IMG/VR virus record: IMGVR_UViG_3300031519_004379
Coordinates: 1-53,472 of that record
Source of the DNA: a virus
Taxonomy: Duplodnaviria > Caudoviricetes
Length of the DNA stretch: 53,472 bases
Direction: 5' to 3' (one strand)
Part shown: positions 7,025-48,149 of the stretch, in pieces
Layout of the letters: each line of letters starts with the position of its first letter
Numbering within the stretch: the first letter of the stretch is position 1
The notes under the pieces: generated by a model
The model's database searches: none
Told to the model about the DNA's origin: nothing
The model's input: only the letters and a program-made list of their open reading frames with translations
Program-made: the position numbers and the translations under genes

Positions 7025-7191
7025 TTATTCTTCTTCCTCAATCTACGAAGTTTGTTGTGTTCGTTTGTCGTTCGCGTCTCTCGAACTGCCTTGAGGTCTG
7101 TTCGCCTTTGCCTTGCCTCATTACTCTTGTGTAATCGCAACGCCTTTACTTTTGGCTTAAGGTTAATTTCTTCTAATGCTTCTTCTTGCAT
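7021..7191 (-). CDS. Small basic hypothetical protein (56 aa)
   Basis: Read manually: MQEEALEEINLKPKVKALRLHK...RRLRKKNK; ATGA overlap with pcyX; GGAGG upstream. Confidence 0.6.
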   Translation of the reverse strand: MQEEALEEINLKPKVKALRLHKSNEARQRRTDLKAVRETRTTNEHNKLRRLRKKNK

Positions 7192-7257
7192 TGTGGGACC
7201 TCCTTATATACAGTTTATAGTTTTCATTGTATAACAAAAAGAGAGAATTGTCAATGT

Positions 7258-7800
7258 TTACTTGGACAACTCATCAAATAATTCAGACGCAAAGTCAAAG
7301 CATCGCTTAGCTTCATCTGCCATACCGTCGTGCAATAATTCTCTAAATTCCGCAATCAACACCTTGGTGTCGCCTTCGAATTCATACATAACACCAGCGC
7401 CCGGAGTTTTTGCTTTGATGATTTGACCGCCATGCAATTCACCAAAATGACGAACGTACATGTGAGCTAGTAGCCCATCATTATCGTCTGCATCAGACAA
7501 TCCTTGCATGTGTGATATACATCTGCCCACTGATTCAGGATAATGGTCGATGTCGTCAAACCCATAAATTTCACCCAGTTCCTCAATGTCTTTTAGGATA
7601 CGTGGGGCGCGATAGATTGCATTTAGATTTGGTGGGATGATTGCAAGTTTTTCCAGCATCTCATATACGATATACTGACAATTAAGAAATTTGTAATATG
7701 TGAAAGGATCAATGCCACCACTAATTAGTTGCTTTGCAAACTTTCTGCGTTCAGCGGCCTGATGGTGCGCCCAAGTAAGTTTTTTCAATTCCATAGTCAT
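7258..7800 (-). CDS. hemO: Heme oxygenase
   Basis: LKKLTWAHHQAAE (proximal His) and LLAHMYVRHFGELHGGQII (distal helix). Confidence 0.9.
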   Translation of the reverse strand: MTMELKKLTWAHHQAAERRKFAKQLISGGIDPFTYYKFLNCQYIVYEMLEKLAIIPPNLNAIYRAPRILKDIEELGEIYGFDDIDHYPESVGRCISHMQGLSDADDNDGLLAHMYVRHFGELHGGQIIKAKTPGAGVMYEFEGDTKVLIAEFRELLHDGMADEAKRCFDFASELFDELSK

Positions 7801-8734: not shown

Positions 8735-9045
8735 GTGTGCCACTTTTCTGTTGCTAGGTAAGTGGCCAACCCCCTGTGTTTACGCTGCTAGAGCGAAACC
8801 AGATGGTGCATAGTTATTGTTTGCACTTGTAGTTTTTGACCAATTACGCAGTCACCCGATAAACTCCACTTTCACTTTCACACCTGTCGATCCTATTTCC
8901 ACCCCATCATAAGTTCTTAGATTATTTCTCAGAATAAAAAGTAACACCCAACGGTGTAAATGCCCAACGGCCTAAGAACTTATGGTGGAGTGGTTGGGTA
9001 CTGCCCCCAAGTCCAGAATGTGTCCACGTTGCTTCAACGTTTACA
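8735..9045 (-). ncRNA. ssrA: Two-piece (circularly permuted) tmRNA, tag ANNNYAPSGFALAA
   Basis: Acceptor piece ...GGGGGCAGTACCCAACCACTCCACCA (CCA ends 8983) precedes coding piece GGGGTGGAAATAGGATCGAC (starts 8905); G3-U70 pair; tag frame 8824-8780; outer ends approximate. Confidence 0.92.
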
Positions 9046-9048
9046 AGT

Positions 9049-9078
9049 TATATATAACACAAAAAGGCCAGATGTCAA
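9049..9078 (-). promoter_or_regulatory. Sigma70-like promoter for tmRNA
   Basis: TTGACA at 9078-9073 followed by TATATAA -10-like element. Confidence 0.55.
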
Positions 9079-9134
9079 TCATCCAGCCTAATTGATTATT
9101 TTTGTGTGATATATTTGTCAGACTATCACGTTTC

Positions 9135-12202: not shown

Positions 12203-12424
12203 TCATTTTTCTTCTGTGACCAAAAAGTATCGGGAAAATGTTTTTTTGTCTTTCGTTTCCGATACCGCTTCAATCCTGTATCCATCATCCTTCAAAAAGC
12301 CAACGTAAGCCGCTAACCTAGTAATTCCGTACTCACTAATTGCTTCCCATGAAGTCATGCCATTTGTTGCATTTTCTAGGTGGTTTAGAACTTGTAGTTT
12401 TTGTGAAAGTTTTGGTTGTACCAT
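12203..12424 (-). CDS. Small winged helix-turn-helix protein
   Basis: SQKLQVLNHL...MTSWEAISEYGITRLAAYV..LK..GY.I; GGAG upstream of ATG 12424. Confidence 0.7.
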   Translation of the reverse strand: MVQPKLSQKLQVLNHLENATNGMTSWEAISEYGITRLAAYVGFLKDDGYRIEAVSETKDKKTFSRYFLVTEEK

Positions 12425-12497
12425 TTCTTTATCTCCATTATGGTTAATTTCCCTTCCATAATATGCCAAGTGGCATTCGTTGTCAACATTTATTTTA

Positions 12498-12719
12498 TTA
12501 TAACATATACTGCCTTATCCATTCTTTCAGTTCGTGGACGGTTTCTGCGTCTTCGAATGACTGGTCTTTATCCTCCGCTTCGGTTGTCTCACGGTCATAT
12601 GCTTCAGTAGCTTTCCGTTCAGACTCGACTGCTCCGCAGGTTGGGCAGATGCTGCTCGACATCGGGTTGGTGTGCTGTTCGCCACATTCACGGCACGGCT
12701 TGTGAGTTCTGTTGGTCAT
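12498..12719 (-). CDS. Small zinc-ribbon protein
   Basis: CRECG...CPTCG; TTGACA promoter upstream. Confidence 0.6.
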   Translation of the reverse strand: MTNRTHKPCRECGEQHTNPMSSSICPTCGAVESERKATEAYDRETTEAEDKDQSFEDAETVHELKEWIRQYML

Positions 12720-12808
12720 AGGTAATCTTCTTTCTGAGATGGCTACATTGTTTTTTGTAACTTCTGTAGTACGCTGATGATTGCTCAATGTCAACATTTA
12801 TTTTTATC

Positions 12809-12863
12809 TTGACATTGTTCTGTGGTCGTGTATAATAGGCTTATGCCTTATGATATATAAATA
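12809..12863 (+). promoter_or_regulatory. Tandem sigma70 promoter (TTGACA-N16-TATAAT) and T4 late promoter (TATAAATA 12856-12863)
   Basis: Exact consensus elements before the P450 operon. Confidence 0.7.
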
Positions 12864-12897
12864 GATTCAAACATAGTATTATTAAGGATAATAAATT

Positions 12898-13200
12898 ATG
12901 ACAACTCAAACCGTAGTTATCACACCATCAACAGAAATGTCTTCTTCTGCTAGTATTGATTATATCGCAAGTCTACTTCCAACAGCAGTTATAAATCATC
13001 TTGCAACAACTGCTGGCGTGACAAGAACAGTATCAACTTCATCCAATGGTAACACACATACAATTGTTACAACTTGGTCAGATGACACCGATAAAGAAAC
13101 GTTTAAAACATTGATGGCTGATGTGTCTTCTGGGGTCATATCTACTCTAGAAAGTGAAGGATGGGCTATCTCATTTACACCATTAACTGCTGATCTATAA
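12898..13200 (+). CDS. Thr/Ser-rich hypothetical protein, first gene of the enzyme operon
   Basis: AAGGA RBS, 100 aa. Confidence 0.7.
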   Translation: MTTQTVVITPSTEMSSSASIDYIASLLPTAVINHLATTAGVTRTVSTSSNGNTHTIVTTWSDDTDKETFKTLMADVSSGVISTLESEGWAISFTPLTADL

Positions 13201-13224
13201 CACACTCCCAATATAGGGTATATT

Positions 13225-14472
13225 ATGAGAAAAAATGACTTTGAAATTGTTAACCCCAATTTTCTATATCAAATGGACGAACACATTACCTTTTGTTTTG
13301 AAAATGAACCAAGGGGGTTCTTTTGGCATCCAATATATAAACACTGGATAATCTTCTCAATGGACAAGCTTAAAGAAGCTTCCAAAATGAATGAAGAATT
13401 TAGTTTAGCAAAAACATCACCAGCGCCTTTTGACCCAACACCATTAGGTGGTATATGGAGAGCAGGATATGCTCTTACACTTAGGGAAGGCCCACACCAC
13501 CATATTGCAAAGAAAGAAAGTTTGAATTGGGCTAAAAGACGTTCTAGCTTTATGATCGACACTTTAAAGTCGAACGTAGACAAATGGCTTGGTACTATAC
13601 AAAAAGGCAAACCGTTTATGTCATATGATGTTATTGGTAGAATTGTTACTGATACACAGATTCAAACCATCGAATTTCCTTGGGGTAAATTAGACGTAAC
13701 CGAAGATTTTGTAAAAGATGGGTTTCACGAATGGATGCGCCCCGGTGGTGTGTTCTCTAATTTCAACCCAGACTTTGACTATGATAAGCCAGTTGCTGAG
13801 ACCACAGAGTTTTACGGCATGTTTGCGCGTATTGTTGATGATGCCATTAAACATTATCACACAGAAGGTGTTGATGAAGATACGATGATTAACATGACAA
13901 AGAACCTAAGTGACAAGCAATGGGAATACAATGACAACCCCCACAGAATGGCATACATGTTCATTCAATCATTATGGACTGTCGTAATACCAACATTTGC
14001 TTTGAGTATGTACCAAAACCTTGTAATGAATCTTGCTATGTATCCAGATATAACAAAAAGAATAAAGGCAGATAGAACCCTCGTTTCAAAGTTTGCGCGG
14101 GAGAGTATGAGACTTGCCCCACTTAAAGGTGGTGTTCGTGACATTACGGAAGACTTGGATTACCATGGGTATAAGTTCGACAAGAATGGTCGTATCCTTC
14201 TGTATACATACGGTGCTAATCGTGACCCAAAATACTTCAAGAACCCATTAGAGTTTAGTTTGGAAAGAGATGACGAACCGCTTCCAGTAACTCTTGCTTA
14301 CGGGCCGCATCATTGCACTGGCGACTTCCTTGTCAAGCATTTTCTTGAGATGATTACTAATAGTTTGCTTGATAGGTTCGACAACTTTGAGATTACAAAA
14401 CAACCAGAATTGTTGCCAGCTATGTTTGGATCAACTACGGTGTATAAAGATTTGGGACTTGTTTTCTCATGA
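13225..14472 (+). CDS. Cytochrome P450
   Basis: ExxR (RESMR), GANRDP.YF.NPLEF..ER, heme-ligand loop AYGPHHCTG; 415 aa. Confidence 0.9.
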   Translation: MRKNDFEIVNPNFLYQMDEHITFCFENEPRGFFWHPIYKHWIIFSMDKLKEASKMNEEFSLAKTSPAPFDPTPLGGIWRAGYALTLREGPHHHIAKKESLNWAKRRSSFMIDTLKSNVDKWLGTIQKGKPFMSYDVIGRIVTDTQIQTIEFPWGKLDVTEDFVKDGFHEWMRPGGVFSNFNPDFDYDKPVAETTEFYGMFARIVDDAIKHYHTEGVDEDTMINMTKNLSDKQWEYNDNPHRMAYMFIQSLWTVVIPTFALSMYQNLVMNLAMYPDITKRIKADRTLVSKFARESMRLAPLKGGVRDITEDLDYHGYKFDKNGRILLYTYGANRDPKYFKNPLEFSLERDDEPLPVTLAYGPHHCTGDFLVKHFLEMITNSLLDRFDNFEITKQPELLPAMFGSTTVYKDLGLVFS

Positions 14473-14978
14473 TAGAAAATAAAGTTCTTTATGAGGTTTC
14501 TCCTGAGCTTTCTGCATTCATAGAAGAGTGCGGGAAGCTTGGGTATAAAAACAATAGTTCTTTAGATGCTATGAATTTCCAAAAAACTTTAGATGAAGGT
14601 GGTGCGTGGTTTGCAACTTATGTAGACGATAAAATTGTAGGCCTAAGTGGTGTACATAAATTTAGAGATGGTTACCGTGCATTATATAGAGGTTGTCAAC
14701 TATACTCACGATCTGGTGGGTTAAGTAAAAACCATATGAACTGTTGGATGTTTTATTATCACTTGCCAATGGCAATTTATTGTACAAATGGTCCTATATA
14801 CATTACTACTAATACGAGCAATGACGCAAGTGGTAAAATGTTGCGATTGGATAAATTATACCATATTTTAGCTAAAAAAACAATAGTAAAACATGTTAGC
14901 ACAGAAGAATTGTTTGGGGTCGAACAAAATATTTGGCTGTTACACGAAGAAAATTATATAAAGGCAAGAGGTGGTTAG
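14469..14978 (+). CDS. Hypothetical protein, possible GNAT-fold acyltransferase
   Basis: WFATYVDDKIVGLSGVH beta-hairpin is GNAT-like; ATGA-coupled. Confidence 0.45.
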   Translation: MIENKVLYEVSPELSAFIEECGKLGYKNNSSLDAMNFQKTLDEGGAWFATYVDDKIVGLSGVHKFRDGYRALYRGCQLYSRSGGLSKNHMNCWMFYYHLPMAIYCTNGPIYITTNTSNDASGKMLRLDKLYHILAKKTIVKHVSTEELFGVEQNIWLLHEENYIKARGG

Positions 14979-16170
14979 AATGATGAAGATTGCTGTATTA
15001 GGTGCTGGTAGTGCTGGTGTGCTAACCGCAGGTTGCATCCTCAAAGACTTTAGAAATAGAGGCATTGATCTTGAGCTTACTCATGTTTATGATTCAAGCA
15101 AACCAATTCTTGGTGTGGGGGAAAGCACGACATCAGAAGTAACCTTTGCTATCGGCCAAGCATTTAACTTCATTTTTGCAACTGAAGCTGCTGAGCTAAA
15201 GAGTACCACAAAATACGGTACGCACTATATCGATTGGAGAGAGAAAGACATCATCTTCCCATTTCAGTCAGGGTATCATGCTATCCACTTTGATGCAAAA
15301 GACTTTGTGAAAATGGGGTTTGAAAGACTGAATAAGATATACGAAAACTATACAACACTTGATGGTAATGTAGAATCTCTACTTCAGCATAAAGAAGATT
15401 ACACCAACGAACATGTTGCCCAACTGTTTATAGATGGAAAATATTATGAATTTGATTATGTGATTGACTGTCGTGGCAGGCCTGTTGATTTTACTGATTA
15501 TGAAGAATGTAATTTAGTTCTTAATTCTGCTTTGGTATACGATGATCCTAAACCATCTGACTTTGGATTTACTCGCCATGTTGCCCACAAATATGGTTGG
15601 ATGTTTGTGATCCCACTACAACACAGAACATCACATGGATTTCTTTATAATAATGAATTTTGTACACGCAAAGAAGCAGAAGAAGAGCTTATTCGTATCA
15701 CAGATGCAACAGACGATGACAGAGGTGGGTTTAGAACGTTTGATTTGAAACCATACTATTGTAGAAAAACTGTAGATGGTCGAGTGATTAAGAATGGCAA
15801 TCGCGCTGTGTTCTTTGAACCTATGAGTGCTAATTCTCTGTATATGGCAATCAAAAACATACAAATCTTTTCGGAATATATTAGAGGCGAAACCTCACAA
15901 GAAAGAGCGAATGAGTTGTGCATACTTAATTATCGTGCCGTCGAAGACTTGATTAACTTAATATATCACGGTGGGTCTATCTACGAAAACAAGTTTTGGG
16001 ATTGGGCAAAACAAACATCTTCTGCGCGTTTAGAGGCAACTGATGTTTTGAAAAGATACGTCGCAGGCCAAGACGATGAGATGTTCAAGACCATTACTGA
16101 AAGGTTTATGGGGCATCACGTACTTCGATATGTTGACAAAGAATTTGGGTTTGGGTATTTTCATGATTAG
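14971..16170 (+). CDS. Flavin-dependent tryptophan-halogenase-family protein
   Basis: GAGSAG, GVGEST, TTKYG, IDCRG, GWMFVIPL, FFEPMSA. Confidence 0.85.
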   Translation: MVRMMKIAVLGAGSAGVLTAGCILKDFRNRGIDLELTHVYDSSKPILGVGESTTSEVTFAIGQAFNFIFATEAAELKSTTKYGTHYIDWREKDIIFPFQSGYHAIHFDAKDFVKMGFERLNKIYENYTTLDGNVESLLQHKEDYTNEHVAQLFIDGKYYEFDYVIDCRGRPVDFTDYEECNLVLNSALVYDDPKPSDFGFTRHVAHKYGWMFVIPLQHRTSHGFLYNNEFCTRKEAEEELIRITDATDDDRGGFRTFDLKPYYCRKTVDGRVIKNGNRAVFFEPMSANSLYMAIKNIQIFSEYIRGETSQERANELCILNYRAVEDLINLIYHGGSIYENKFWDWAKQTSSARLEATDVLKRYVAGQDDEMFKTITERFMGHHVLRYVDKEFGFGYFHD

Positions 16171-16927
16171 GCAGTTTTATGATGATTATGACAACAAATA
16201 TTTCACTGATGTTATGGAGAATGGCAAGGTAATCCACACGTCAGGGTCAAGTGGCAAACCAAAGGCAATCAAGCAAACCCCAGAGAAAATATCAACAGAC
16301 GCTATCATAGCTTGTATTGTCCAGCGGATCAATCAGTCTAGTATAATATACACTTGTCTAAGCCCAGAACGTGCGGGTGGGTTGTTTGCCCAAACTATCC
16401 CTGCACTAATGGTAGGTGCAACTGTTGATCTAGTGAAGTTCAACCCATACACTTATGTGCGAAATGTATCTAAATACACACATAGCCACTTGACACCAAA
16501 ACAAGCCAAAGCCGTAATGAACACGAAAGGGTTTGATACTCTTGATCTAAATGGGCATGTCTTCTTAATTGGGTCTGAACCAGTTACTTACGATATCATA
16601 GAAACTTTTATTGAAAGAGGGGCGGAAGTCATACTGATATGGGGTATGAGTGAAATCGGTCCTAACACTATTATGCATAGACTTGTAAATATGGCTGAGG
16701 TAGCGAAAGTCAAAGCAATAACACCTTCTGGATCAGTTTTGCTTGGGAACATTATCAACTGCGATGTAAAAATTATGGATAATAATTGCTTGTGGGTTAA
16801 AGGTGAGACGTGTGTTTACGACGATTGGTTCAATACAAAAGATCAGGTAAAGATGGTGGACGGAATATTATTTTACACAGGTAGAGATGGCACTCCTGTA
16901 GATTTTAACAAACCTCGTAAAGGGTAA
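16163..16927 (+). CDS. Compact AMP-binding (ANL-family) adenylation enzyme
   Basis: HTSGSSGKPK, WGMSE, WFNTKD, FYTGR motifs; N- and C-terminal portions reduced. Confidence 0.75.
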   Translation: MIRQFYDDYDNKYFTDVMENGKVIHTSGSSGKPKAIKQTPEKISTDAIIACIVQRINQSSIIYTCLSPERAGGLFAQTIPALMVGATVDLVKFNPYTYVRNVSKYTHSHLTPKQAKAVMNTKGFDTLDLNGHVFLIGSEPVTYDIIETFIERGAEVILIWGMSEIGPNTIMHRLVNMAEVAKVKAITPSGSVLLGNIINCDVKIMDNNCLWVKGETCVYDDWFNTKDQVKMVDGILFYTGRDGTPVDFNKPRKG

Positions 16928-16929
16928 AT

Positions 16930-18981
16930 ATGACATACGATATTATAATTATGACCGAAGGCAGCGATCCCGTTTTTAATGTAGCAAGGGCTGTGGGTGG
17001 TTATAAAATTGCGTCGTTTTTACGAAACCAAGGTTATTCTGTTTTTGTATTAAATAACTTTACCCATTTTATGCAGAAGGGTAACATAAAGGAAATTCTT
17101 GATAAACTCATCGGTGACAACACACTATGGGTTGGGTTTAGCTCTTCTCTATTCATGAGAAAAAGTAAGGATGTTTATAATAAACGCCATACTCGTGATA
17201 GTGCAAGACAAAACATTCTTTGGCGCTGGCCTATCAGCGATGAAGAAGTCAAGGATATGACTGATTATATTAGGAACAAAGGTGTAAAAACTGTTTATGG
17301 GGGTATGATGACCTACTATCGCGCATCTGAAGTGCGTGAAAGTATAGATTACTTTGTTGTTGGTATGGGAGAACACCCTGCACTTCACATCACAGAACAC
17401 TTAAAAAATAACACACCTTTAAATTATAATAAAGAATATGGTGACTACCCATACGTTATCGATTACGATCAGAAAGGTGCGTTGTTTGACTTTAGGAATG
17501 AACGCGTAAACTACGTGCCAGAAGACTTCTGGAATGCTGAGGATGGCATGGGCATTGAGTTTGGTCGGGGCTGTATCTTTAAATGCAAATTCTGTGCCTA
17601 CCCTCTTATTGGCAAGAAGAAAGGTGACAACACGTTTCTTAGAGATAAAGAATGCATCAAGGCTGAACTACAACAGAACTATGATCTATACGGCACAACA
17701 AAATACGTTATCATTGATGACACCTTCAATGAACAGACTGTAAAACTTAGGGCTATCGCAGAAGCTATTGAGGAACTTGCTTTACCAGAGAAATTACAGT
17801 TTTCTTCTTTCATACGCATTGACCTTGTTGCTGCATTTCCAGAACAACTAGATTTGCTCAAAAGAATTAACGTGTGTGCTTGGTTCTTGGGGGTCGAGTC
17901 TTTGAATTATGATTCTGCTAGGTCCATTGGCAAAGGTTGCCCCAAAGAAAAAGTTTTCGATACAATAGAAAAGGCTAAGGAATACTTTGGTGGTTCTTTA
18001 AGCATATATGGTAGTTTCATAGCTGGATTGCCTCACGACAACAGAGAAACAATGGATGTATGGACTAAAGAACTTTTCGAACGGAAAGACTTGTTTGATG
18101 CATATTCGTTTAGTCCTTTAGAACTTGGCACGGCCTCTGAGCTTTCAAAGCGAAAAGAATACTTTGGATATACTATCGATGTACAGTCCAATATGGAAAA
18201 CAAATGGTCTAACCAATACTGGACAAGTGATGAAGTGGTTGAGTACGTGAAAGACTTACAAGAAGGTTATTTTGATGATATTAAAGTATCCACATTCTTC
18301 TTGATATTTTACCAGTGTCTTGGGTTTGAGTTTGAAGAGCTAAGAAAGATGACGTTCACTGAGTTGTTTACTAACCCGAAGATAAAAAGAAGAGCGCGTC
18401 AATATTTACACAAGAGTTACTACTCTAAGGTTGAAAAATTTCTTGGGGTTTTAAAAAGCGAACCCAACGTGAAGTACATGACTAATTTAGCAGTCAAGAA
18501 AGAATTGAAAGATGCTTTGATAGCAGAGTTTCATGAGAATGAGCATCGATCTAAAGCATTCACTGCTTCTAGTGAAACGGAAACAAAAACACTTGAGATG
18601 TTGCAAGTTGTACGAAGAGACGATATGGAAGACTGTGATATTGCTAATGAATTGGCATGGCAAGTTGCATCAGTTATTGGGTGTGAAGTATTCCCCCGAT
18701 ACTACAAGCAAGAAGCAGGTAGCCATCTAGCCGCCCATCGTGACCATGGCACAGCAACTGCTATAAATATAATCTTGAACGGTTCTGGGCCAATTACGTG
18801 GGATGAAGATATCGACGTATACTATGAATGTGCTCTATTAAACGTTCAGGAAATGCACAGCGTGTATTCGGATGATGATAGGATATTCCTTAAATTAGCA
18901 ATATTCGATAAGAGTTACGATGAAGTATTAAAAGCGATTGAAGGCAAAGAAGGAAAGGTTTTTGACATTGACTTATTATGA
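16930..18981 (+). CDS. B12-binding-type radical SAM protein with C-terminal 2OG-Fe(II)/cupin-like domain
   Basis: GRGCIFKCKFC, IIDDTFN, LGVESL, FIAGLP; C-terminal AHRDH...MHSV...RIFLK. Confidence 0.85.
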   Translation: MTYDIIIMTEGSDPVFNVARAVGGYKIASFLRNQGYSVFVLNNFTHFMQKGNIKEILDKLIGDNTLWVGFSSSLFMRKSKDVYNKRHTRDSARQNILWRWPISDEEVKDMTDYIRNKGVKTVYGGMMTYYRASEVRESIDYFVVGMGEHPALHITEHLKNNTPLNYNKEYGDYPYVIDYDQKGALFDFRNERVNYVPEDFWNAEDGMGIEFGRGCIFKCKFCAYPLIGKKKGDNTFLRDKECIKAELQQNYDLYGTTKYVIIDDTFNEQTVKLRAIAEAIEELALPEKLQFSSFIRIDLVAAFPEQLDLLKRINVCAWFLGVESLNYDSARSIGKGCPKEKVFDTIEKAKEYFGGSLSIYGSFIAGLPHDNRETMDVWTKELFERKDLFDAYSFSPLELGTASELSKRKEYFGYTIDVQSNMENKWSNQYWTSDEVVEYVKDLQEGYFDDIKVSTFFLIFYQCLGFEFEELRKMTFTELFTNPKIKRRARQYLHKSYYSKVEKFLGVLKSEPNVKYMTNLAVKKELKDALIAEFHENEHRSKAFTASSETETKTLEMLQVVRRDDMEDCDIANELAWQVASVIGCEVFPRYYKQEAGSHLAAHRDHGTATAINIILNGSGPITWDEDIDVYYECALLNVQEMHSVYSDDDRIFLKLAIFDKSYDEVLKAIEGKEGKVFDIDLL

Positions 18982-19540
18982 TACAGTAGACTTACCTCAG
19001 ACCGAAGGTCTATTAGAAGAAATAGACAAATTAAATTTAGAGTGGTTCCAACCTTCCAATCCAAATAGCGCTCAACAGATATGTCTAAATGCCGCACCGG
19101 GGTATACAGATGATTATAGCTTTGGTGCTGGATACTTCGCAGATAAAGGCAATTCAGACTTCTTCATTAGGCTCACACCACAAGGAGATGAGCGTATACC
19201 AATGTCGCCCAAGTCTGTGTATGATTGGGAATTGTGTGATGTGTTTAGAGGAACCTCACTTGGTTACATGTATATGGCAATAGAGACAAAATACAATGTT
19301 GGTAGAGTAAGGCTTTTGAAATCAAAACCATACACTTGTATGAACTGGCACATAGACCCGATCCCAAGATTGCACTATCCAATACAAACAGACGAAGCTT
19401 GTTTAATGATTATTGACAAAGAATTGCATCATTTGCCATTAAATACATGGACATTTGCGCATACAGATAAAGGAAACCACACTGCTTTGAACGCAAGCCA
19501 AATAGACCGCATACATTTAGTGGCTGATATATTACCATGA
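18938..19540 (+). CDS. 2OG-Fe(II) oxygenase, aspartyl beta-hydroxylase-like
   Basis: GRVRLL, WHID, RLHYPIQT, HTALNAS..DRIHLV. Confidence 0.75.
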   Translation: MKAKKERFLTLTYYDTVDLPQTEGLLEEIDKLNLEWFQPSNPNSAQQICLNAAPGYTDDYSFGAGYFADKGNSDFFIRLTPQGDERIPMSPKSVYDWELCDVFRGTSLGYMYMAIETKYNVGRVRLLKSKPYTCMNWHIDPIPRLHYPIQTDEACLMIIDKELHHLPLNTWTFAHTDKGNHTALNASQIDRIHLVADILP

Positions 19541-19725
19541 CAGAATTATTTGTTGTTCAATATGTGCTTGTAACTATACTTGCGATTATTGTAACTGAAA
19601 ATTTTGTACCGACAACGCAACCTTGGAATTGGAAAACGGCGCATAAAATAGAAAGATATATGGCTTGTTGTATTCCAATTTACAGAGAAGTGATTATGAT
19701 AATCATATTATGGAACAAGAAATGA
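19537..19725 (+). CDS. Small membrane protein
   Basis: ATGA overlaps at both ends; hydrophobic segments. Confidence 0.5.
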   Translation: MTELFVVQYVLVTILAIIVTENFVPTTQPWNWKTAHKIERYMACCIPIYREVIMIIILWNKK

Positions 19726-20336
19726 AATTTAGAAAAACAAATACATATTCTTTATTTGAACAGTGTGTACCTGATTACAGTTGGCAAAGTGTATTAGACT
19801 TTGGTGGTAATAGGGGGAACTTGTTAGATGGTGATATTAATGCTAAAAAGTATACGTGCCTTGATATTAGTAAAGAAGGATTAGACGCTCTGCCTGATGG
19901 TGTTAAGCGTATTCATTGGAACAGACACCACTCTTACTACAACTCTAATGGCAATCTGCACGAACCGTTTCCAAAAATACCGTGGCACGATATAGTATTT
20001 GCGAATAGTGTGTTTACACATCATACATTAGATGAGGCTCTTTATTGCATACACCACCTATCAAAATACACAAATAGGATTGTATTCACTTACATAGACC
20101 CAACTAATGATACTTTCTTGGAGAAGTTTCGAGAAAAGTATTACGATCTGAGATTTGAAGGTGGAAATGTTTCATATACACAAGATGAGAAGGGTATTCT
20201 TTGGAGTGCGTTTGATACTGAACATTTAAAAAGCTACTTAGATTTTCATCACATAAATACAGGAACCACAGATTGGTTTAACTACATGGACATTGAAGTA
20301 CGTCCACCTACAGCTTTTGGGGCTTTTGGATATTGA
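19722..20336 (+). CDS. Class I SAM-dependent methyltransferase
   Basis: VLDFGGNRGNL, YTCLDIS, DIVFANSVFTH. Confidence 0.8.
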   Translation: MKFRKTNTYSLFEQCVPDYSWQSVLDFGGNRGNLLDGDINAKKYTCLDISKEGLDALPDGVKRIHWNRHHSYYNSNGNLHEPFPKIPWHDIVFANSVFTHHTLDEALYCIHHLSKYTNRIVFTYIDPTNDTFLEKFREKYYDLRFEGGNVSYTQDEKGILWSAFDTEHLKSYLDFHHINTGTTDWFNYMDIEVRPPTAFGAFGY

Positions 20337-20980
20337 ACTTAATAATTCCAAGTAAAGTAATACTTATGCTTAGTGGAGGTTTAGACTCGGCAATACTTTT
20401 ATATTGTATTTGCAAGTATTATCCTAAAACTACAGTAATAACTGCGACAGGACGAAACATTTATTCGCCTTTTGACGCAGAAAAAGCAAAAGATATTTTA
20501 ATTTTTTTGCATAATACTTTTCCAAATAATAATATAATTAAGAGTTACGAATATGATCTTGATATAAAAAATAAAGTATGGTTGGAAAAGGCTAGGGATT
20601 TTAAAAACACTCGATTTGATACTGTTGAGAGTTTTTCTCAACATCTCCAGCAAGTTGATAAATTAGGTAGTATTAAATATGAAACGAATGTATACGATTT
20701 TATTAATGGAACAACCGCCAATCCTCCAATCAATATTCATGGACACCAAACAGCAAGATCAGGAAATGACTTGCCAGAAATACTCAACACTGGTAAAGAT
20801 ACAAAAATGTATATGCCTTGGGCTAATAAAGATAAAAAATACATAGCAAAAATCTATGAAGATGAAAATTTATTAGATAGTCTTTTTAAATTAACACGAT
20901 CTTGTGTAGATGCGAATCTGTTACAATGTAATGAATGTTTTTGGTGTTTAGAACGGGCGTGGGGATTTTTGGATAAATAA
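20333..20980 (+). CDS. QueC-like PP-loop ATPase
   Basis: LSGGLDS, LTRSC, CNECFWCLER.W. Confidence 0.75.
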   Translation: MNLIIPSKVILMLSGGLDSAILLYCICKYYPKTTVITATGRNIYSPFDAEKAKDILIFLHNTFPNNNIIKSYEYDLDIKNKVWLEKARDFKNTRFDTVESFSQHLQQVDKLGSIKYETNVYDFINGTTANPPINIHGHQTARSGNDLPEILNTGKDTKMYMPWANKDKKYIAKIYEDENLLDSLFKLTRSCVDANLLQCNECFWCLERAWGFLDK

Positions 20981-21008
20981 ACGAGTAACATCATATCAGG
21001 AGAACAAT

Positions 21009-21290
21009 ATGAAATTTGGCAACTTAGGCCGATATGGCTATTTAATTAATACTGAACACCTCGAAGAAGTTCGTTCTGGATATTTCCAACACATGTGGTT
21101 TGCTATAAAACTAAGTACCTTTGGCTTAGTCAATGCAATTACTGGATACACTCATGCGTTTATTCCGTTTTTGTTTCCCAACACTCCACACAGAATTACC
21201 TTAAGACAGGTTGAGTTAGCAGAAGAACTCATTGCTGAACTCAGGGGTGTAATCGAACGAGAAGATGCTGAAAAGGTTTCAAAAAAGTAA
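21009..21290 (+). CDS. Hypothetical protein
   Basis: AGGAG RBS; HLEEV..GYFQHM.FA...HAFIPFLF motif. Confidence 0.65.
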   Translation: MKFGNLGRYGYLINTEHLEEVRSGYFQHMWFAIKLSTFGLVNAITGYTHAFIPFLFPNTPHRITLRQVELAEELIAELRGVIEREDAEKVSKK

Positions 21291-22988
21291 ACCAAAGTTT
21301 TTAGAAATCATGTGAACCATTACGGTATTGTGTTCTGCAATTGCGGCTATTAGTTCGTACTTGCTCTTCTTGTGCATCATACTACCTTCCGTAAAGGCTT
21401 CAAGAGACTCGCTCATGTGTTTGAGATGCCATGTCTCTGATAGCCTATCGACTGGCACACCATTCATTTTGACTTTGAACGACATAATTGTTTCGTTATC
21501 ATAGCCAAACGAATCTTGGATTTGTGATGGGTATATCGAGTTTTCCTTTAGGTCTGTCATAACATCCAACACATCATGTATGTCAGAAAAGTACCCAAGT
21601 TTTTCCATCACTTTTCTACTCGCCATCATAATGCCAGTGTTGAACACATAGTTATCTGGTTCCATATCTTCCTCTGCCAACATCGCATGAGTATTCCAGT
21701 ATTTCGCCTCTGGTGATCTAAAGTCTTTGTCGTAATTCTTGAGGTATCTAGTGTCCCATAATTTTACGCCTGAGTCTTCAGCATTAGATGCGTCACAACA
21801 CAAGCAATGCTCAGCCTTTAGGTAGTTGAAGGCGTCAGTGTCACACGTAAAGTAAACGTCATAATCTACATACATCACCAAATCATAGTGATGAGTAAGC
21901 TTGTCTAGTAGGTGTACCTTGTATAGGTTAACCACATCATATTCTGATAGTTGTGGGAACTTGGCAAAAAACTTTTCATATTCTGCGTCTCTCGTAAAAT
22001 GCAGATAATTTGCACCAATAGATTTAGCGTAATCAGCGTGGTTTTGATACAGCCTGTCACTGTAATTAGCCAACCGTTCTTGGGTTCGCTTACTCTTATT
22101 GACAGGATCGTCTTTTGGGCCACGAGGGTTGTCTAGTCTTTCATCTGGTATCTCAATATATATTGAGAAAATTGCTTTCGTTTTATCGTTGAAGAAAACG
22201 TTAAACTTCTTGCCGATAATATGAGCTATCTCAATATTATCCCAATCCAATGGGGTTGGCTTCTCGCTGATGATACTATGCCATCTTTGGTCCATCACAA
22301 CGTATGGGATGCTTTCAGTCTCAAGTATATAAGAAAAGATAGACTCGTTGTTTGGATAGTAATACATTCTTAGGAATTTGAACTGGTCGTTGTCTATACC
22401 GTGTACGCGCAATGAATTGATCTTATCAATGATGTTCGGCAGTCTCTCAATAAACTTTATTTGTTTAATATGCTCTGCTTTAGCCACCATGATACCAGTG
22501 TTCATGACATGACAATCTTTGCCACCCAGCAAATCTTTGGTGATGTGATACTTCAATGTGGGGCTACGATTGCCAATACTTTCAAACATAACACCTTCTA
22601 TGTCGGTACTGGTAACCTTATCGGTTTGTGTTTGGATGTGGATGCCTTGCTCTAAATCTAGTTCATCAAACACATTCTTTTCAGTGTTGAATACCACATC
22701 CATATCAACATACATAACTTCATCATAATCTTCTGCCAACTCTGCCATGAGGTGGTGCTTATATAAATTAACTTTTGTGAATTCTAATCCAGCATCAACA
22801 TCAAAATTGCCCATAGTATTATAAAACAAAATAAACTTTACACCAATTAAACTATTGGCGTATTCTTCTTTGTTGGCAAGCAACCTATCAAAATATTCAT
22901 TGACCTGTTCAGTGGCGTAATGGTTCATACTCCATTTGTCATTTTCTTTTTCAATGTCATCGTATGTTGTAAAAATTACTCGCTTCAT
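21279..22988 (-). CDS. Tandem-duplicated GT-A glycosyltransferase-like protein
   Basis: Two copies of VNLYK..L...YD.VMYVDxDV and (M/F)NTGIM...NE. Confidence 0.75.
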   Translation of the reverse strand: MKRVIFTTYDDIEKENDKWSMNHYATEQVNEYFDRLLANKEEYANSLIGVKFILFYNTMGNFDVDAGLEFTKVNLYKHHLMAELAEDYDEVMYVDMDVVFNTEKNVFDELDLEQGIHIQTQTDKVTSTDIEGVMFESIGNRSPTLKYHITKDLLGGKDCHVMNTGIMVAKAEHIKQIKFIERLPNIIDKINSLRVHGIDNDQFKFLRMYYYPNNESIFSYILETESIPYVVMDQRWHSIISEKPTPLDWDNIEIAHIIGKKFNVFFNDKTKAIFSIYIEIPDERLDNPRGPKDDPVNKSKRTQERLANYSDRLYQNHADYAKSIGANYLHFTRDAEYEKFFAKFPQLSEYDVVNLYKVHLLDKLTHHYDLVMYVDYDVYFTCDTDAFNYLKAEHCLCCDASNAEDSGVKLWDTRYLKNYDKDFRSPEAKYWNTHAMLAEEDMEPDNYVFNTGIMMASRKVMEKLGYFSDIHDVLDVMTDLKENSIYPSQIQDSFGYDNETIMSFKVKMNGVPVDRLSETWHLKHMSESLEAFTEGSMMHKKSKYELIAAIAEHNTVMVHMISKNFGLLF

Positions 22989-23650
22989 AGACCAATCACC
23001 ATATATCTGTCACATTCCTCATTGACTTTCTTTTCACCTTTCCACAAAACCACAGCCAAGTCCAACGACTCAACAAACTCATCTAAGCTATTGTGTGTAT
23101 TGATATGGCTCTGAATAGAGTGGTAATTATTACTTTGAAAACAAATCATAGTCTCGCGAGTCTTCGCGCCAAGCATCAACCGTATGTCATCTGGTTCCAT
23201 ATGCTCACAACTTGTATTGATAATAAGTTGGTACGCATCAGCCCTTGTGAAGAAGTAGTCTAAGGCATCGTCAGTGATAGCATAATTGTTTTTATAGTCG
23301 TCATTACCAGCTTGTAGTGCGTATGAATACTGCAAACATAGTGGGTCTGTGTCAACGCTCCAAATATTGATATCATTATCTATCTTTTGGCGAAGTAACA
23401 TTCCATTCATGCCGTACCATCCACCAAGGATAACTATGTCTCTTAGAGGATTGTACTCAAATTGCTCATCAGTGAGAAAAGGAACTAGGGTATCAACAAG
23501 CCACTGCTTGCTATTTAATTGCGTTTCGTTGACAGAGTTCATAATGTCGTAGCTTCTATACAAATCTACGTCTTTATTGTATTGCGATTCTCTGTAAATA
23601 TCTTCACATGCGTTTAATGCATTTTTATAGATTGTTTCTAGGTAGCTCAT
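22985..23650 (-). CDS. SAM-dependent methyltransferase-like protein
   Basis: SKQWL, ILGGWYG, INTSCEHM, QSNNY, RYMVIG. Confidence 0.7.
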   Translation of the reverse strand: MSYLETIYKNALNACEDIYRESQYNKDVDLYRSYDIMNSVNETQLNSKQWLVDTLVPFLTDEQFEYNPLRDIVILGGWYGMNGMLLRQKIDNDINIWSVDTDPLCLQYSYALQAGNDDYKNNYAITDDALDYFFTRADAYQLIINTSCEHMEPDDIRLMLGAKTRETMICFQSNNYHSIQSHINTHNSLDEFVESLDLAVVLWKGEKKVNEECDRYMVIGL

Positions 23651-24233
23651 ATTTCATTCCATTATACATATCAATTGGCGCTTCCATAAAATCGTTAGCA
23701 ACGCTGTTCACAAGACCATGATCGAAAGTGTTAAACTCCAACCCTTCATGGACTAAAAATCTATCTATACCTTTATACTTACGCATAAAGTAATCTTTGT
23801 TGGACATGAAGTGATCCCATATGTGGGTTTGTTCACCAGCAGTCCATGTGATTATCGAACTATTTATATGAACATCATAAGCATGTGGAGCCATGTATAG
23901 ATCGTCTTTCCAATAGTCTTTAAGGATAGTCAACCCATTCCATGTTAGAAGGGAGCTTGGGTCAGACTTAATATCCATATCAAGATCGAAAAACAGGCAC
24001 TTGCCTTTTACAGGGAAGTCAGCACTAAACATAGCAAGCTTGTTCCACCAAAATCTAAGTGTCGGCTTCGAAAAGCATGGGATAGTTTCAATCTCAACAC
24101 CGATAGGGTCTTCGGTATAACAAAAATACTCAGCCATAGGAAAATATTCCTTAAGCTGATCTCTTAATCTATTTACATGTTCGGGGCTATACTTATCACC
24201 GTGCTTTACAAATATGATATTATCTGGCTTCAT
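23625..24233 (-). CDS. Glycosyltransferase (GT-A)
   Basis: KHGDKYS..HVN.L, WWNKL, LFFDLD, NSSI, GID. Confidence 0.75.
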   Translation of the reverse strand: MKPDNIIFVKHGDKYSPEHVNRLRDQLKEYFPMAEYFCYTEDPIGVEIETIPCFSKPTLRFWWNKLAMFSADFPVKGKCLFFDLDMDIKSDPSSLLTWNGLTILKDYWKDDLYMAPHAYDVHINSSIITWTAGEQTHIWDHFMSNKDYFMRKYKGIDRFLVHEGLEFNTFDHGLVNSVANDFMEAPIDMYNGMKYELPRNNL

Positions 24234-25290
24234 TAATATTACCTCCAAACTCGTCATAAAACTTAATTGGTGTTCCATCAACAGAATCTAAGCACCAATT
24301 TTCTATTTGGATAATTAAGTGTTCTGCAACTGTATAATTTCTATAACCAGTAACAGTTTTTAATTCATCATTTAAATATTGAATAATCAATTGAATTTCT
24401 TTTGTCGGCATATGTTTAATAGTAACGTGCGACGGATACAAAATAGTGTTGTACCAAAGGTTGCATTCGTGTTTTTCGGTAAATCGCACAAACTCTATCA
24501 TCTCATCCCAGTTCATATTCATAGGATTAACCATAATAGATAATGATCGTTTGTTAATATGACAGTAATTTTTAAATATTTTAAAATATTTCATCAGCGT
24601 TTTAAAAGAACCGTTTACTCTAATCTTTTCGTAGCGCTTTTCAATTAAACTATCAATGCTAATATTTAAATGTATATTACATTTATCCAAAATACCTTGC
24701 ACACGTTTATTATAAACCGTACCATTGGTGGCGATGTTTACTCTTAACTGTGGATTTATTTCCGCGACTATATCTAATAGATTTAATAAAATCTTTTGTG
24801 CAAAAGGCTCTCCGCCATTTACTCTAAGTTCAGTAAGGTGAGGAATAAACTCTCGCATTTGATCTAGGAATGTATCATCAAAAATTTGTGGCAATGGTGG
24901 AAGGTTATCTCTGTTTTTACGAATACCACTGCTAAGATTGCCATTACACATAATACATTCAAGATTACATTGATTGCTTAATTCTATTTCCATCATAGAT
25001 GGCATATCGTTTACAGGAAACTTTTGATATGCTTTTGCTAAAGGCCATACATTATTATCAATATCTTTTTCACATTCTTTGCATCTATTTAGAAATTGGT
25101 TTTGTTTTAAAGCATCTCTGTATTTTTGAAAGTGTTCACCACGCCATATATCCATAAGCGATCTGTCTTTACTCCATTTGTCGCAGAGACCGGGGAGCTT
25201 CCAACAAGGAGAAACATTTCCTTGAAGTGTGATATACATATTGTTGAATGGCGCGTTGCAAGCCGTGCCTTTGCCGTATTTTTTTACCAT
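24220..25290 (-). CDS. Radical SAM protein with N-terminal SPASM/twitch domain
   Basis: CNAPF..PC; SNQCNLECIMC; GGEPF; TNGT; SIDS. Confidence 0.85.
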   Translation of the reverse strand: MVKKYGKGTACNAPFNNMYITLQGNVSPCWKLPGLCDKWSKDRSLMDIWRGEHFQKYRDALKQNQFLNRCKECEKDIDNNVWPLAKAYQKFPVNDMPSMMEIELSNQCNLECIMCNGNLSSGIRKNRDNLPPLPQIFDDTFLDQMREFIPHLTELRVNGGEPFAQKILLNLLDIVAEINPQLRVNIATNGTVYNKRVQGILDKCNIHLNISIDSLIEKRYEKIRVNGSFKTLMKYFKIFKNYCHINKRSLSIMVNPMNMNWDEMIEFVRFTEKHECNLWYNTILYPSHVTIKHMPTKEIQLIIQYLNDELKTVTGYRNYTVAEHLIIQIENWCLDSVDGTPIKFYDEFGGNINEAR

Positions 25291-26384
25291 AATAAAATTT
25301 CAGCCCAATCTTCAAATATTTCTTTAAAAGATTCTTTTCTTATTTTATCTAAAGATTTTGTTTTTTGATGAAACTCTAAGAGTCTATGATCTTCTTTAGT
25401 GTCCATGAATCTTATCACTTGTTTATATTCATCCCCTAATTTAATTTTAACTTCATTTTTAACATCGTTAGGCAAAAACTGAATATTTAAATATTTTGGT
25501 TCATGCAAAAACCCATTTGCCACAATAATGTCGTTTTGATTAGCCCAGCTATCTAAATCTTCTAAATGGTAAATATTAAAGTTGTTGATGGTTCTATATA
25601 ACTGAATTTTAAATTCGGGGTAATTACTTTTCATAGATAAGATATTAGTTTTAATTTTATTCCAATCAGAGTTGCCTCTTTGATATTCTAATCTATCACC
25701 AGTGTCGTCTATGCTTAGCGCAATATCTGTTTTTTTAAAACTAAGCATTTTGTCCATTAAAGAAGGATTGTAAAACATCCCATTAGTAGTAATTTTTAAA
25801 TATATGTTCTTGCAATATTCTGTACAGGAAATCAGTTCTATTAATTTTTTATTTTCAGAACTAAAAAATGGCTCACCACCAGTTAATTCTAAATATGATA
25901 TATTAGGCAGAATCTTTTCAAAGAAAACTTTTTCGTTATCTGTTTCTATAATTTTATTAGTTATATGATATGGGTCGAGGTTTCCTTGCTCCTTGGCTAT
26001 AGAGCTTGAAGCTTGGGGGCCGCACATTCTACATTTAAGATTGCACACATTAGATAATTTTAAATCTATTAACTGTGGAAGTGGTGTTTCTAAATCATAA
26101 TCTAAATCCCATATATCACTATATTTTTGCCGAAAACTTTTTACACCAACCGCTTCTTCTTTCCAACACCAGTTGCATTCTGAAGGCTCTTCTCCATCTA
26201 AAAAAGCTTGACGCAAAGCTTTGATTTCTTTTCCATTATACAATTCGTCAAGTGTACCATCTTTCATCCAAGGCATCTTGTATTTAATTTGTCGGTCAGG
26301 TTGTTCATATCTACAGCATGGTCTGATAGACCCATTAACATCTGTAGATATTCCAATCCATGGAGCGATACATAATCTACTCAT
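25284..26384 (-). CDS. Radical SAM protein with N-terminal twitch domain
   Basis: CIAPW..RPCC, CNWCW; SNVCNLKCRMC; GGEPF; LSIDD. Confidence 0.85.
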   Translation of the reverse strand: MSRLCIAPWIGISTDVNGSIRPCCRYEQPDRQIKYKMPWMKDGTLDELYNGKEIKALRQAFLDGEEPSECNWCWKEEAVGVKSFRQKYSDIWDLDYDLETPLPQLIDLKLSNVCNLKCRMCGPQASSSIAKEQGNLDPYHITNKIIETDNEKVFFEKILPNISYLELTGGEPFFSSENKKLIELISCTEYCKNIYLKITTNGMFYNPSLMDKMLSFKKTDIALSIDDTGDRLEYQRGNSDWNKIKTNILSMKSNYPEFKIQLYRTINNFNIYHLEDLDSWANQNDIIVANGFLHEPKYLNIQFLPNDVKNEVKIKLGDEYKQVIRFMDTKEDHRLLEFHQKTKSLDKIRKESFKEIFEDWAEILLW

Positions 26385-26733
26385 CGTTGAGCTTTTTAGA
26401 ACACATTAACATGCACAATCTATGAGGCTCGTCTGTGTCCCAAGATTCTGGCAAAGTTTTAGTGTACCATTCATGATTTAAAACTTCCATAATAGAGTTA
26501 TTTTCTAAATTTAATTCTTTTTGGTGTTTGTAATAAGATTGCATAACTGGGTGTGTTATATCATCAACCCCTTTTTTTAATATTGCGGGGTCGTTGTACT
26601 TATCAGTAACTTTAAACTTATATCCTTGATTGCCAAGATAACAACACGGATATACTTGCTTATCTGGGTTGATAAGTATTTTATTCATGTTCGCCCATCT
26701 ACATTCTATGTTGTTTTTATTTTGCATCTGCAT
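26377..26733 (-). CDS. Stand-alone SPASM-like Cys domain
   Basis: IECRW, VYPCCYL, CMLMC. Confidence 0.65.
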   Translation of the reverse strand: MQMQNKNNIECRWANMNKILINPDKQVYPCCYLGNQGYKFKVTDKYNDPAILKKGVDDITHPVMQSYYKHQKELNLENNSIMEVLNHEWYTKTLPESWDTDEPHRLCMLMCSKKLNDE

Positions 26734-28751: not shown

Positions 28752-28762
28752 AATATTGCTCC

Positions 28763-29740: not shown

Positions 29741-29743
29741 TTT

Positions 29744-29935
29744 TTAGACCGCTATGCCACAGTGAAATTCTCTTACTTGAGTGCCAGCGGAATCGTAAAT
29801 TCTCAAGACGTTGTTTTGTGCAGCAATTGCTGCATTCACTGTTGCTTGCGTTGTACCATCCATCGTTGCGATAGCTTGTAGTTCTAGTGCGTTAGTGACA
29901 ACCGTAGTTGCTGCTACTTTAATGGCCATGTTCAT
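29744..29935 (-). CDS. Small probable structural protein
   Basis: MAIKV.. start, AGGAG RBS, first gene after late promoter. Confidence 0.6.
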   Translation of the reverse strand: MNMAIKVAATTVVTNALELQAIATMDGTTQATVNAAIAAQNNVLRIYDSAGTQVREFHCGIAV

Positions 29936-48142: not shown

Positions 48143-48149
48143 GTTTATC

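Follow-up and report, generated by a model that had tools for sequence, protein, structure and literature searches.

What would a tailed phage do with a cytochrome P450, a flavin-dependent halogenase, a radical S-adenosylmethionine (SAM) enzyme and several further tailoring enzymes encoded in a single row of genes? We studied this question in the IMG/VR virus record IMGVR_UViG_3300031519_004379 (Duplodnaviria; Caudoviricetes), a 53.5-kb fragment with an estimated completeness of 24%, whose whole length of 53,472 nt is called here the window. The genes concerned are 11 co-oriented, mostly overlapping open reading frames (ORFs) in the positive strand, at 12898-21290. A preliminary description had taken them for a biosynthetic-like operon with which the phage would make a small molecule, or would modify a virion protein, a lipid or a DNA base late in infection; as a whole, this interpretation was partly supported. 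Judged from its sequence and its conservation in other viral contigs (see below), the locus is a functional, phage-specific operon of tailoring enzymes. Late tailoring of a virion-surface protein, or of the glycan on it, is the best single reading of its role, and we hold it tentatively.

Organization of the operon and its promoters

The ORFs are arranged in the order ferredoxin-fold protein o01, P450, GNAT-fold protein, halogenase, shortened adenylate-forming enzyme (mini-ANL), radical SAM enzyme, hydroxylase, 62-aa ORF, methyltransferase, PP-loop ATPase and DUF6356 protein (Table 1). Successive ORFs either overlap by 4-44 nt or are separated by gaps of 28 nt at most, and these overlapping or near-touching junctions suggest translational coupling. 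The longest ORFs of the halogenase, mini-ANL and methyltransferase genes start at 14971, 16076 and 19665, respectively; comparison with relatives revised these starts to 14983, 16163 (254 aa) and, probably, near 19710. Pfam matches above cut-off were obtained for p450, Trp_halogenase, AMP-binding, Radical_SAM, QueC (C-terminal part only) and DUF6356, and below cut-off for B12-binding (PF02310, 17.4 vs 32.1 bits), Asp_Arg_Hydrox (PF05118, E 0.0014, 18.9 vs 22.6 bits) and Methyltransf_12 (24.3 vs 30 bits). The P450, halogenase and radical SAM enzyme listed in the preliminary description are among the former, but only one of its 2-oxoglutarate (2OG) oxygenases is supported. No RNA family was found within 12.8-21.3 kb.

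Both promoters proposed for this ordered set were recovered. The list of promoter-like sites for 12300-21800 has 38 entries, of which the sigma70-like TTGACA-16-TATAAT alone agrees with the consensus at all 12 positions; none of the 12 related loci examined has a perfect promoter of this type ahead of its first gene. Other strains diverge upstream of 12827 yet keep TTGACA-16 nt-TATAAT (loose ends in four of four runs). The promoter seems to sit on a recombination boundary and to be retained there. Closer to o01 lies the T4-type late-promoter-like motif TATAAATA, of which the window holds 10 sites vs 4.2 expected, and NATAAATA is located 23-36 nt upstream of the first gene in nine of the 12 related loci, in agreement with the late promoter first proposed.

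Conservation of the gene order and strain variation

An IMG/VR scan with the P450 yielded 17 contigs with 74-91% identity and about 12 distinct sequence types. The window gene order was kept in all 17, with none of the shuffling that had been named as evidence against an ordered operon. From their distribution (Table 1), the P450, GNAT, mini-ANL, radical SAM, hydroxylase and methyltransferase genes are considered the six-gene core, and the halogenase, the PP-loop ATPase, the ferredoxin-fold o01 and the two small membrane proteins (62-aa ORF and DUF6356) are accessory. Besides the 17, two further contigs carried a radical SAM gene of the type found in this cluster. In all 11 ORFs the proportion of nonsynonymous differences (pN, 0.03-0.42) was far below that of synonymous ones (pS, 0.22-0.87); relative to the closest relative examined, pN and pS were 0.06 and 0.71 for the P450 and 0.05 and 0.70 for the radical SAM enzyme. 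The fastest-evolving ORF was o01, with a ratio of nonsynonymous to synonymous rates (dN/dS) of 0.34-0.47.

Near-identical DNA was present in runs of 10 marine or brine metagenome studies, one of which is possibly the source of the window, leaving about nine others. In run X2 a 6.6-kb contig spanned 12834-19414 with 11 differences. The dominant strain of this run skips or replaces 19547-19720, which corresponds to the 62-aa ORF, and also 24227-27515, a radical SAM cassette of the neighbouring module (see below); a minor variant joins 20332 to 20975 and is therefore devoid of the PP-loop gene. These strain variants show cassette gain and loss. RNA-library contigs from three runs of one study covered much of the operon, including the mini-ANL/radical SAM junction and the stretch from the methyltransferase to DUF6356, and 20-26 of the 31-37 contigs per run were at least 99% alike to the window. 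The operon sequence is thus present in RNA libraries, by which transcription is not proven. These libraries were 3-5 times deeper at 27.8-31 kb than across the operon, with a flat DNA run, a weak hint since contig depth is unreliable for ranking genes.

Relatives of the radical SAM enzyme are far more widespread than the operon. At least 554 stretches of IMG/VR viral contigs encode them; those listed outside the cluster are 29-37% identical and are mostly lone genes in varied contexts. In 66 such distant loci (L036-L101) a halogenase-like gene was found within the retrieved stretch in 11 and other operon families in 1-4, and no neighbour family was common to more than 10 of 64 loci. It could be argued from these lone relatives (30-37% identity), from the cyanophage halogenases, which are single genes, and from the strain-level gain and loss of cassettes that the operon is a set of independent auxiliary genes without a common pathway, whose order merely reflects the common descent of a hypervariable island. 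We consider this quite improbable: the order has outlasted saturation of the synonymous sites (pS 0.7-0.87) and a drop in protein identity to as low as 36-60%, the flanks vary between contigs, the junctions suggest translational coupling, and the P450, GNAT, mini-ANL, o01 and cluster-type radical SAM genes were met only in one another's company.

Cultured phages (50,697 phage records) gave no match, either to the entire region by megablast or to the P450 and radical SAM enzyme by tblastn, and eight of the ten proteins scanned, all but the halogenase and the PP-loop protein, had no PHROG family; the P450-containing set thus appears as exceptional as it was first said to be. No description of this operon was found in the literature searched, including the main texts of PMC11480375 and PMC7029224, whose supplements may list such genes. 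Enzyme cassettes are already known as phage auxiliary genes and in hypervariable islands; what is unusual here is the content and the fixed order.

Table 1 Features of the window. Presence refers to the P450-bearing IMG/VR contigs (present/assessable).
Feature	Position	Strand	Remarks	Presence
Sigma70-like promoter TTGACA-16-TATAAT	12809-12836	+	12/12 consensus positions	
T4-type late-promoter-like motif TATAAATA	12856-12863	+	34 nt upstream of o01 start codon	
o01, 100 aa, ferredoxin-like (beta-alpha-alpha-beta twice)	12898-13200	+	Accessory, cluster-specific	9/17 (missing in 8)
Cytochrome P450, 415 aa	13225-14472	+	Pfam p450 (PF00067) 44.6 bits vs cut-off 22.8	
GNAT-fold acyltransferase-like protein, 169 aa	14469-14978	+	No Pfam family	17/17
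Short flavin-dependent halogenase-like protein, 395 aa from MKIA	14983-16170	+	Accessory; Trp_halogenase 110.8 bits, 1e-31	13/16 (missing in 3)
Mini-ANL, shortened adenylate-forming enzyme core, 254 aa	16163-16927	+	Start set by stop codons in relatives	16/16
B12-type (class B-like) radical SAM enzyme, 683 aa	16930-18981	+	Radical_SAM 60.2 bits	16/16
AspH/Cpz10-like small cupin, probable Fe(II)/2OG beta-hydroxylase	18938-19540	+	Start codon uncertain	15/16
62-aa hydrophobic ORF	19537-19725	+	Variable; pN 0.12-0.41, pS 0.53-0.74	8/17 (same-position homologues)
SAM-dependent methyltransferase-like protein	19710-20336 (longest ORF from 19665)	+	Methyltransf_12 5e-05, below cut-off	15/15
PP-loop ATPase with QueC-like Cys-rich C-terminus	20333-20980	+	Accessory cassette; SGGLDS motif	1/17 (at window position)
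DUF6356 small membrane-type protein	21009-21290	+	Last operon gene; Pfam 40.1 bits	12/15
Neighbour module	21279-29973	-	Convergent with the operon	
Radical SAM cassette of the module	24220-27571	-	One member split into separate radical SAM and SPASM ORFs	
63-aa protein and 325-aa Ala/Thr/Gly-rich fibre-like protein	28763-29935	-	Behind TATAAATA site	
TATAAATA sites of the module	29966 and 27641			
Haem/bilin genes: HemC, HemF, HemE, haem oxygenase, ferredoxin-dependent bilin reductase	44367-46866 and 6338-7800	- (both)		
Permuted tmRNA, alphaproteobacterial-type	8736-9082	-	114.7 bits; tag peptide ANNNYAPSGFALAA	
Curli-like module	33751-37234	+	CsgG (3e-46), then weak curlin-repeat proteins	
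Adenylate/guanylate-cyclase-like protein, 684 aa	39501-41555	+	Common to Melnitz and HTVC008M	
Class-3 lipase gene	41814-42548	+		
Five-tRNA cluster	47907-49069	-	Ser-TGA, Trp-CCA, Asn-GTT, Thr-TGT, Leu-TAG	
Gene with weak RelA/SpoT-like match	51274-52149	-		

Proteins encoded by the operon

The P450 carries Cys364 in a YGPHHCTG loop (Y359-G-P-H-H-C364-T) and the ExxR pair E293/R296, all invariant in 15 sequences; the canonical Phe is Leu, and the I-helix (QSLWT) retains Thr252 of the acid-alcohol pair but has Trp in place of the acid. Its family comprised about 46 clusters at 58-88% identity, all from metagenomic or viral contigs, with the next match at E 4e-13. The nearest relatives in the PDB, P450tol and CYP153-type enzymes, were weak matches (E 1e-19 to 1e-22), and TxtE, cyclodipeptide-associated and CYP152/153 enzymes also appeared among the weak ones. 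Viral P450s are known from giant viruses, Ranid herpesvirus 3 and Mycobacterium phage Adler (Lamb et al. 2019, cited in PMC9405906); according to PMC9405906, the first viral redox partner is the phage flavodoxin reported there, none having been found before. Like these, the window P450 looks like an orphan, since Fer2 and Fer4_15 were found in none of five cluster-bearing records, all of them fragments; unlike them, it belongs to a discrete, metagenome-only family that is always operonic and resides in marine tailed phages.

No Pfam, NCBIfam or PHROG family was found for o01. Its AlphaFold2 (AF2) model had a mean local confidence (pLDDT) of 90.1 and structural neighbours of the ABM/Dabb type in the Atlas (template modelling score, TM, 0.54-0.60), and Foldseek against the PDB returned weak, generic ferredoxin folds only. 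Homologues were located in 10 IMG/VR contigs, directly upstream of the P450 in nine and at the contig end in the tenth. With its invariant C-terminus (GW.I.F.P.TADL), o01 was the sole small candidate for the precursor of a ribosomally synthesized and post-translationally modified peptide (RiPP), and it was rejected as a well-folded protein that is missing from many of the contigs (Table 1); no other precursor was found, smaller ORFs not having been searched exhaustively. The GNAT-fold protein (AF2 pLDDT 85) was similar to many GNAT acetyltransferases at Foldseek probability 1.0 (TM 0.44-0.61), and its Atlas neighbours were viral N-acetyltransferase-like clusters; the putative CoA-binding loop of the model is of low confidence. 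A predicted complex of this protein with the mini-ANL scored 0.00, which gives no verdict and counts as evidence neither way.

The halogenase matched phrog_2928 (1.4e-66), and its GxGxxG motif (GAGSAG) and Lys81 were invariant in 10 sequences, including a relative only 28% identical. It deviates from the tryptophan halogenases at three points: the WxWxIP motif reads W-M-F-V-I-P (WxFxIP), the Glu position is Ser (EPMSANS vs EPLEATS of a canonical relative), and with 395 aa vs 497-554 aa in the PDB enzymes it is about 130 residues shorter, without the C-terminal substrate module. VirX1 (6qgm), a related enzyme, was among its PDB matches. The nearest comparison in phages is with the 'tryptophan halogenase' genes of cyanophages S-SSM5 and S-SSM7 (34-37% identity), which share the phrog_2928 family, the flavin-dependent halogenase fold and a marine myovirus as carrier; those are single genes, whereas the window gene lies inside a multi-enzyme operon and has the WxFxIP and Ser variants.

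The adenylation enzyme of the preliminary description was confirmed as an AMP-binding core (PF00501, 54.1 and 54.5 bits in two scans), in a shortened form. The match covers positions 167-374 of 384 in the profile. Set against a 491-aa CoA synthetase, the protein corresponds to residues 151-311 and stops at the hinge; it is devoid of the N-terminal ~150 residues and of the C-terminal subdomain with the A10 Lys. The motifs TSGSSGxPK, WGMxEIG, W..T.D and GR, which correspond to A3, A5, A7 and A8, were invariant in eight sequences. A profile search of 1.84 billion representatives returned 18 mini-ANL clusters at E<=1e-30, mostly of 218-345 aa, so the short form is a family trait; ten of the best-scoring representatives were traced and all were metagenomic. 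The NCBIfam matches were CoA ligases for small acids.

In the radical SAM enzyme, C215, C219 and C222 of the CxxxCxxC motif were invariant in 20 diverse relatives, and some relatives carry PF02310 in precomputed annotation. Its best NCBIfam matches were PhpK, the ladderane lipid radical SAM enzyme, the MCR Gln methyltransferase, HpnJ and BzaD, all far below cut-offs. Forms of ~505 and ~680 aa occur within the cluster, the last ~180 aa being an optional extension with no Pfam or PDB match. The extension was considered as the second 2OG oxygenase and rejected: hhalign against the hydroxylase gave a probability of 1.5%, BLASTP merely a 12-residue patch (E 0.049), and the HRD motif was not invariant. 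The family profile of the operon hydroxylase itself matched, across the core, the caprazamycin beta-hydroxylase chain 7v4f (8e-9), which is Cpz10 (PMC9814697). Both are small cupins (~180-200 aa) with HxD, second His and RIH motifs aligned, and H128, D130, H171 and R181 (alignment numbering) were invariant in seven sequences; overall similarity is low, and the operon has no other recognisable enzyme of the caprazamycin pathway.

Of the remaining products, the 62-aa ORF is probably a single-pass membrane peptide, judging from its hydrophobicity, and the methyltransferase keeps the motif LDFGGNRGNL in relatives (pN 0.09-0.37, pS 0.50-0.78). The DUF6356 protein was 71-98% identical across the contigs that carry it, and its family also matched in Caulobacter vibrioides, a control genome. 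The PP-loop protein, described earlier as QueC-like, is indeed a PP-loop ATPase (phrog_1550, 3e-11), but it resembles QueC solely in the PP-loop and the C-terminal Cys motif: Pfam QueC scored 32.9 bits on residues 151-213 only, and the QueC equivalog TIGR00364 gave 27.3 bits vs a cut-off of 150.3. This C-terminus is what would speak for hypermodification of phage DNA or of a nucleotide, e.g., by 7-deazaguanine-type chemistry. Such a role is very improbable, since the sole nucleoside-linked gene is an accessory one that was found at this position in the window and in one of the 17 contigs and is lost in the minor variant, and the operon has no recognisable partner of the QueD, QueE, FolE or DpdA type; the DNA-base modification of the preliminary description is weak on these grounds.

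The enzyme mix is typical of natural-product tailoring. Proteusin/polytheonamide-type RiPP sets combine B12-type radical SAM C-methyltransferases, a 2OG hydroxylase and an N-methyltransferase, and peptidyl halogenases are also known. The operon has a similar mix of families, but Pfam and NCBIfam scans recognised in it no scaffold-forming enzyme, carrier protein, protease or transporter and, as said, no precursor peptide was found, which speaks against a classical RiPP or natural-product cluster; with no scaffold-forming enzyme recognised, the operon must decorate a pre-existing molecule. This molecule could be a common host metabolite (e.g., a fatty acid or an amino acid, aromatic or not), turned into a diffusible small molecule that acts in the infected cell or after lysis. 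Its carboxylate would be activated by the mini-ANL and PP-loop enzymes, followed by N-acyl transfer (GNAT), C-methylation (B12-type radical SAM), hydroxylation (P450 and Cpz10-like enzyme), methylation and optional halogenation. The match of the hydroxylase to Cpz10, a small-molecule beta-hydroxylase, the P450 matches to TxtE, cyclodipeptide-associated and CYP152/153 enzymes, the small-acid CoA ligases matched by the mini-ANL and its pairing with a GNAT are consistent with this. The conserved signal is, however, a late promoter, the operon persistently adjoins glycosyltransferase and structural-like genes (see below), the mini-ANL lacks the entire subdomain that normally bears the catalytic Lys, and no immunity gene was recognised in the Pfam and NCBIfam scans. 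Taken by itself the small-molecule route is a rather doubtful possibility, nearly as plausible as the virion-surface reading.

Neighbouring module, phage lineage and possible targets

Convergent with the operon in the window lies a module of glycosyltransferase, radical SAM and structural-like genes. Its gene order runs from a 63-aa and then a 325-aa protein through a coiled-coil protein and three or four radical SAM proteins (two with an N-terminal twitch/SPASM-type domain, one of which scored 292.6 bits with NF033640 vs a cut-off of 170) to two unnamed proteins (one methyltransferase-like) and a 569-aa GT8-like glycosyltransferase. The same module (m11-m10-m09, radical SAM/SPASM, m03, m02, GT8) adjoined the operon convergently in the window and three close contigs, and in four other contigs it was colinear and directly upstream of o01-P450, giving a one-direction array of 16-18 kb. 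At least one module family (GT8-like, m02-like or SPASM-type radical SAM) adjoined the P450 core in 14 of the 17 contigs; in the remaining three the flank was too short for linkage to be assessed. The 325-aa protein (m10) had a sole cultured-phage match, in Pelagibacter phage Mosig, where the homologue lies two genes after VrlC and a baseplate gene and is followed by sugar-modifying enzymes. In one relative (L021, 1225-3207) the m10-type protein reaches 660 aa through a repeat-rich C-terminal extension.

The conserved late-type motif, the repeated linkage to this module in two arrangements and the published view of such islands are what lead us to the virion-surface reading. The operon would be transcribed from a T4-type late promoter and would act jointly with the glycosyltransferases, twitch/SPASM radical SAM enzymes and methyltransferase-like protein of the module. 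Together they would carry out hydroxylation, C- or O-methylation, acylation and sometimes halogenation of a virion-surface component, putatively the family of the fibre-like 325-aa protein, encoded at the module's head, or a glycan on it. The host would supply redox partners, flavin reductase, cobalamin and 2OG, and the outcome might be altered host recognition or virion stability.

Several points weigh against this proposal. It is unusual for protein modification to involve enzymes that activate carboxylates (ANL, PP-loop). No m10/m11 homologue was found in nine of the 17 contigs inside the ~10 kb fetched, and the occurrence of the six-gene core without m10/m11 nearby would suit a small-molecule product. 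The perfect sigma70-type promoter in the lineage of the window suggests that expression may not be only late. RNA-library contigs also carry variant sequence upstream of the promoter, and since they extend into it, DNA carry-over or read-through is possible. The solved structures closest to the P450 are those of alkane or fatty-acid hydroxylases, and the best characterised relative of the hydroxylase, Cpz10, works on a small molecule (PMC9814697). The modified product or target is so far putative.

A host lipid or sugar is another candidate target and is considered below, after the phage lineage. The window encodes T4-type replication genes (gp41-like helicase, UvsX, gp32 and gp59); its helicase was only 51-54% identical to those of cultured phages, none exceeding 54%, and the best matches were phages of Sinorhizobium, Caulobacter and Methylophilales (Melnitz). 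Matches to the 684-aa cyclase-like protein were confined to Melnitz phages (48%), Pelagibacter phage HTVC008M (35%) and, along one third of the protein, two Acinetobacter phage records (26%). Together with the permuted tmRNA, the CsgG/curlin module and the haem genes, this protein suggests that the phage belongs with the marine pelagimyophage/Melnitz-like group and has an alphaproteobacterial host; a curli operon, haem genes and a tmRNA of alphaproteobacterial type are pelagimyophage traits in the main text of PMC7029224.

The lineage may not be the only one to carry the operon. HemE and haem oxygenase, searched in five other cluster-bearing records (all fragments, 13-39% complete), were found in only one, the closest relative, and among the other cluster-bearing records CsgG, the cyclase-like protein and UvsX were likewise found in the closest relative only; a Gp23 family search gave no match in any record, control genomes included. 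Going by CheckV completeness, the other cluster-bearing phages would have genomes of about 210-400 kb. The records behind loci L012 and L019, i.e., G001 (91 kb, CheckV 23%) and G005 (51 kb, 13%), imply genomes near 400 kb. Given these sizes and the lack of UvsX, CsgG or cyclase-like matches in both fragments, the operon may also be present in a different, larger phage lineage.

The closest known setting is that of the hypervariable and host-recognition islands in pelagimyophages and cyanomyophages (Zaragoza-Solas et al. 2020, PMC7029224). Such islands belong to marine T4-like phages with tmRNA, curli and haem genes and are rich in GT8 glycosyltransferases, alongside radical SAM cassettes and an Asp/Asn beta-hydroxylase, and O-chain modification was proposed for them; the terms 'P450' and 'halogenase' appear nowhere in that main text, and the islands are poorly syntenic, in contrast to the operon, with its P450 and halogenase and its strictly kept 6- to 10-gene order. 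From this comparison, the operon could instead remodel the host envelope (lipid A, aminolipids or O-antigen) and block superinfection, a role put forward in the literature for GT8-rich pelagimyophage islands. The window has the curli operon, haem genes and cyclase-like protein in common with pelagimyophages, and the operon encodes two small membrane proteins. The lipid and hopanoid families among the matches of the B12-type radical SAM enzyme, and the alkane/fatty-acid hydroxylases among those of the P450, point in the same direction. LpxO and OlsC, which hydroxylate lipids, are members of the AspH family, and we count this in favour too. On the other side, superinfection exclusion is usually early and the conserved motif is late-type, a flavin halogenase acting on lipids or sugars would be unusual, and Pfam and NCBIfam recognised no lipid or sugar-nucleotide biosynthesis gene in the operon; envelope remodelling is thus an unlikely role.

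Alongside its haem-synthesis genes the phage has a gene for a haem enzyme of its own, the P450, and another for a probable cobalamin enzyme. A more specific proposal, which we consider doubtful, is that operon and module form a multi-step pathway that puts halogenated, C-methylated, hydroxylated and acylated groups on the fibre-like virion protein or its glycan, or makes a halogenated small molecule released at lysis, with HemC, HemE and HemF partly supplying the P450.

Auxiliary genes in marine phages are regarded for the most part as lone boosters of host metabolism, whereas the operon is an ordered toolkit of six to ten enzymes, most of whose families are missing from cultured phages. Among its parts are a P450 family that is only metagenomic or viral, a family of shortened adenylating enzymes, and a branch of the radical SAM family spread over viral contigs. 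The identity of the substrate would reveal either virions with extensive chemical decoration or natural products whose synthesis in the ocean is driven by phages and, if the proposed haem supply to the P450 is true, it could explain what the puzzling tetrapyrrole genes in marine phages are for.

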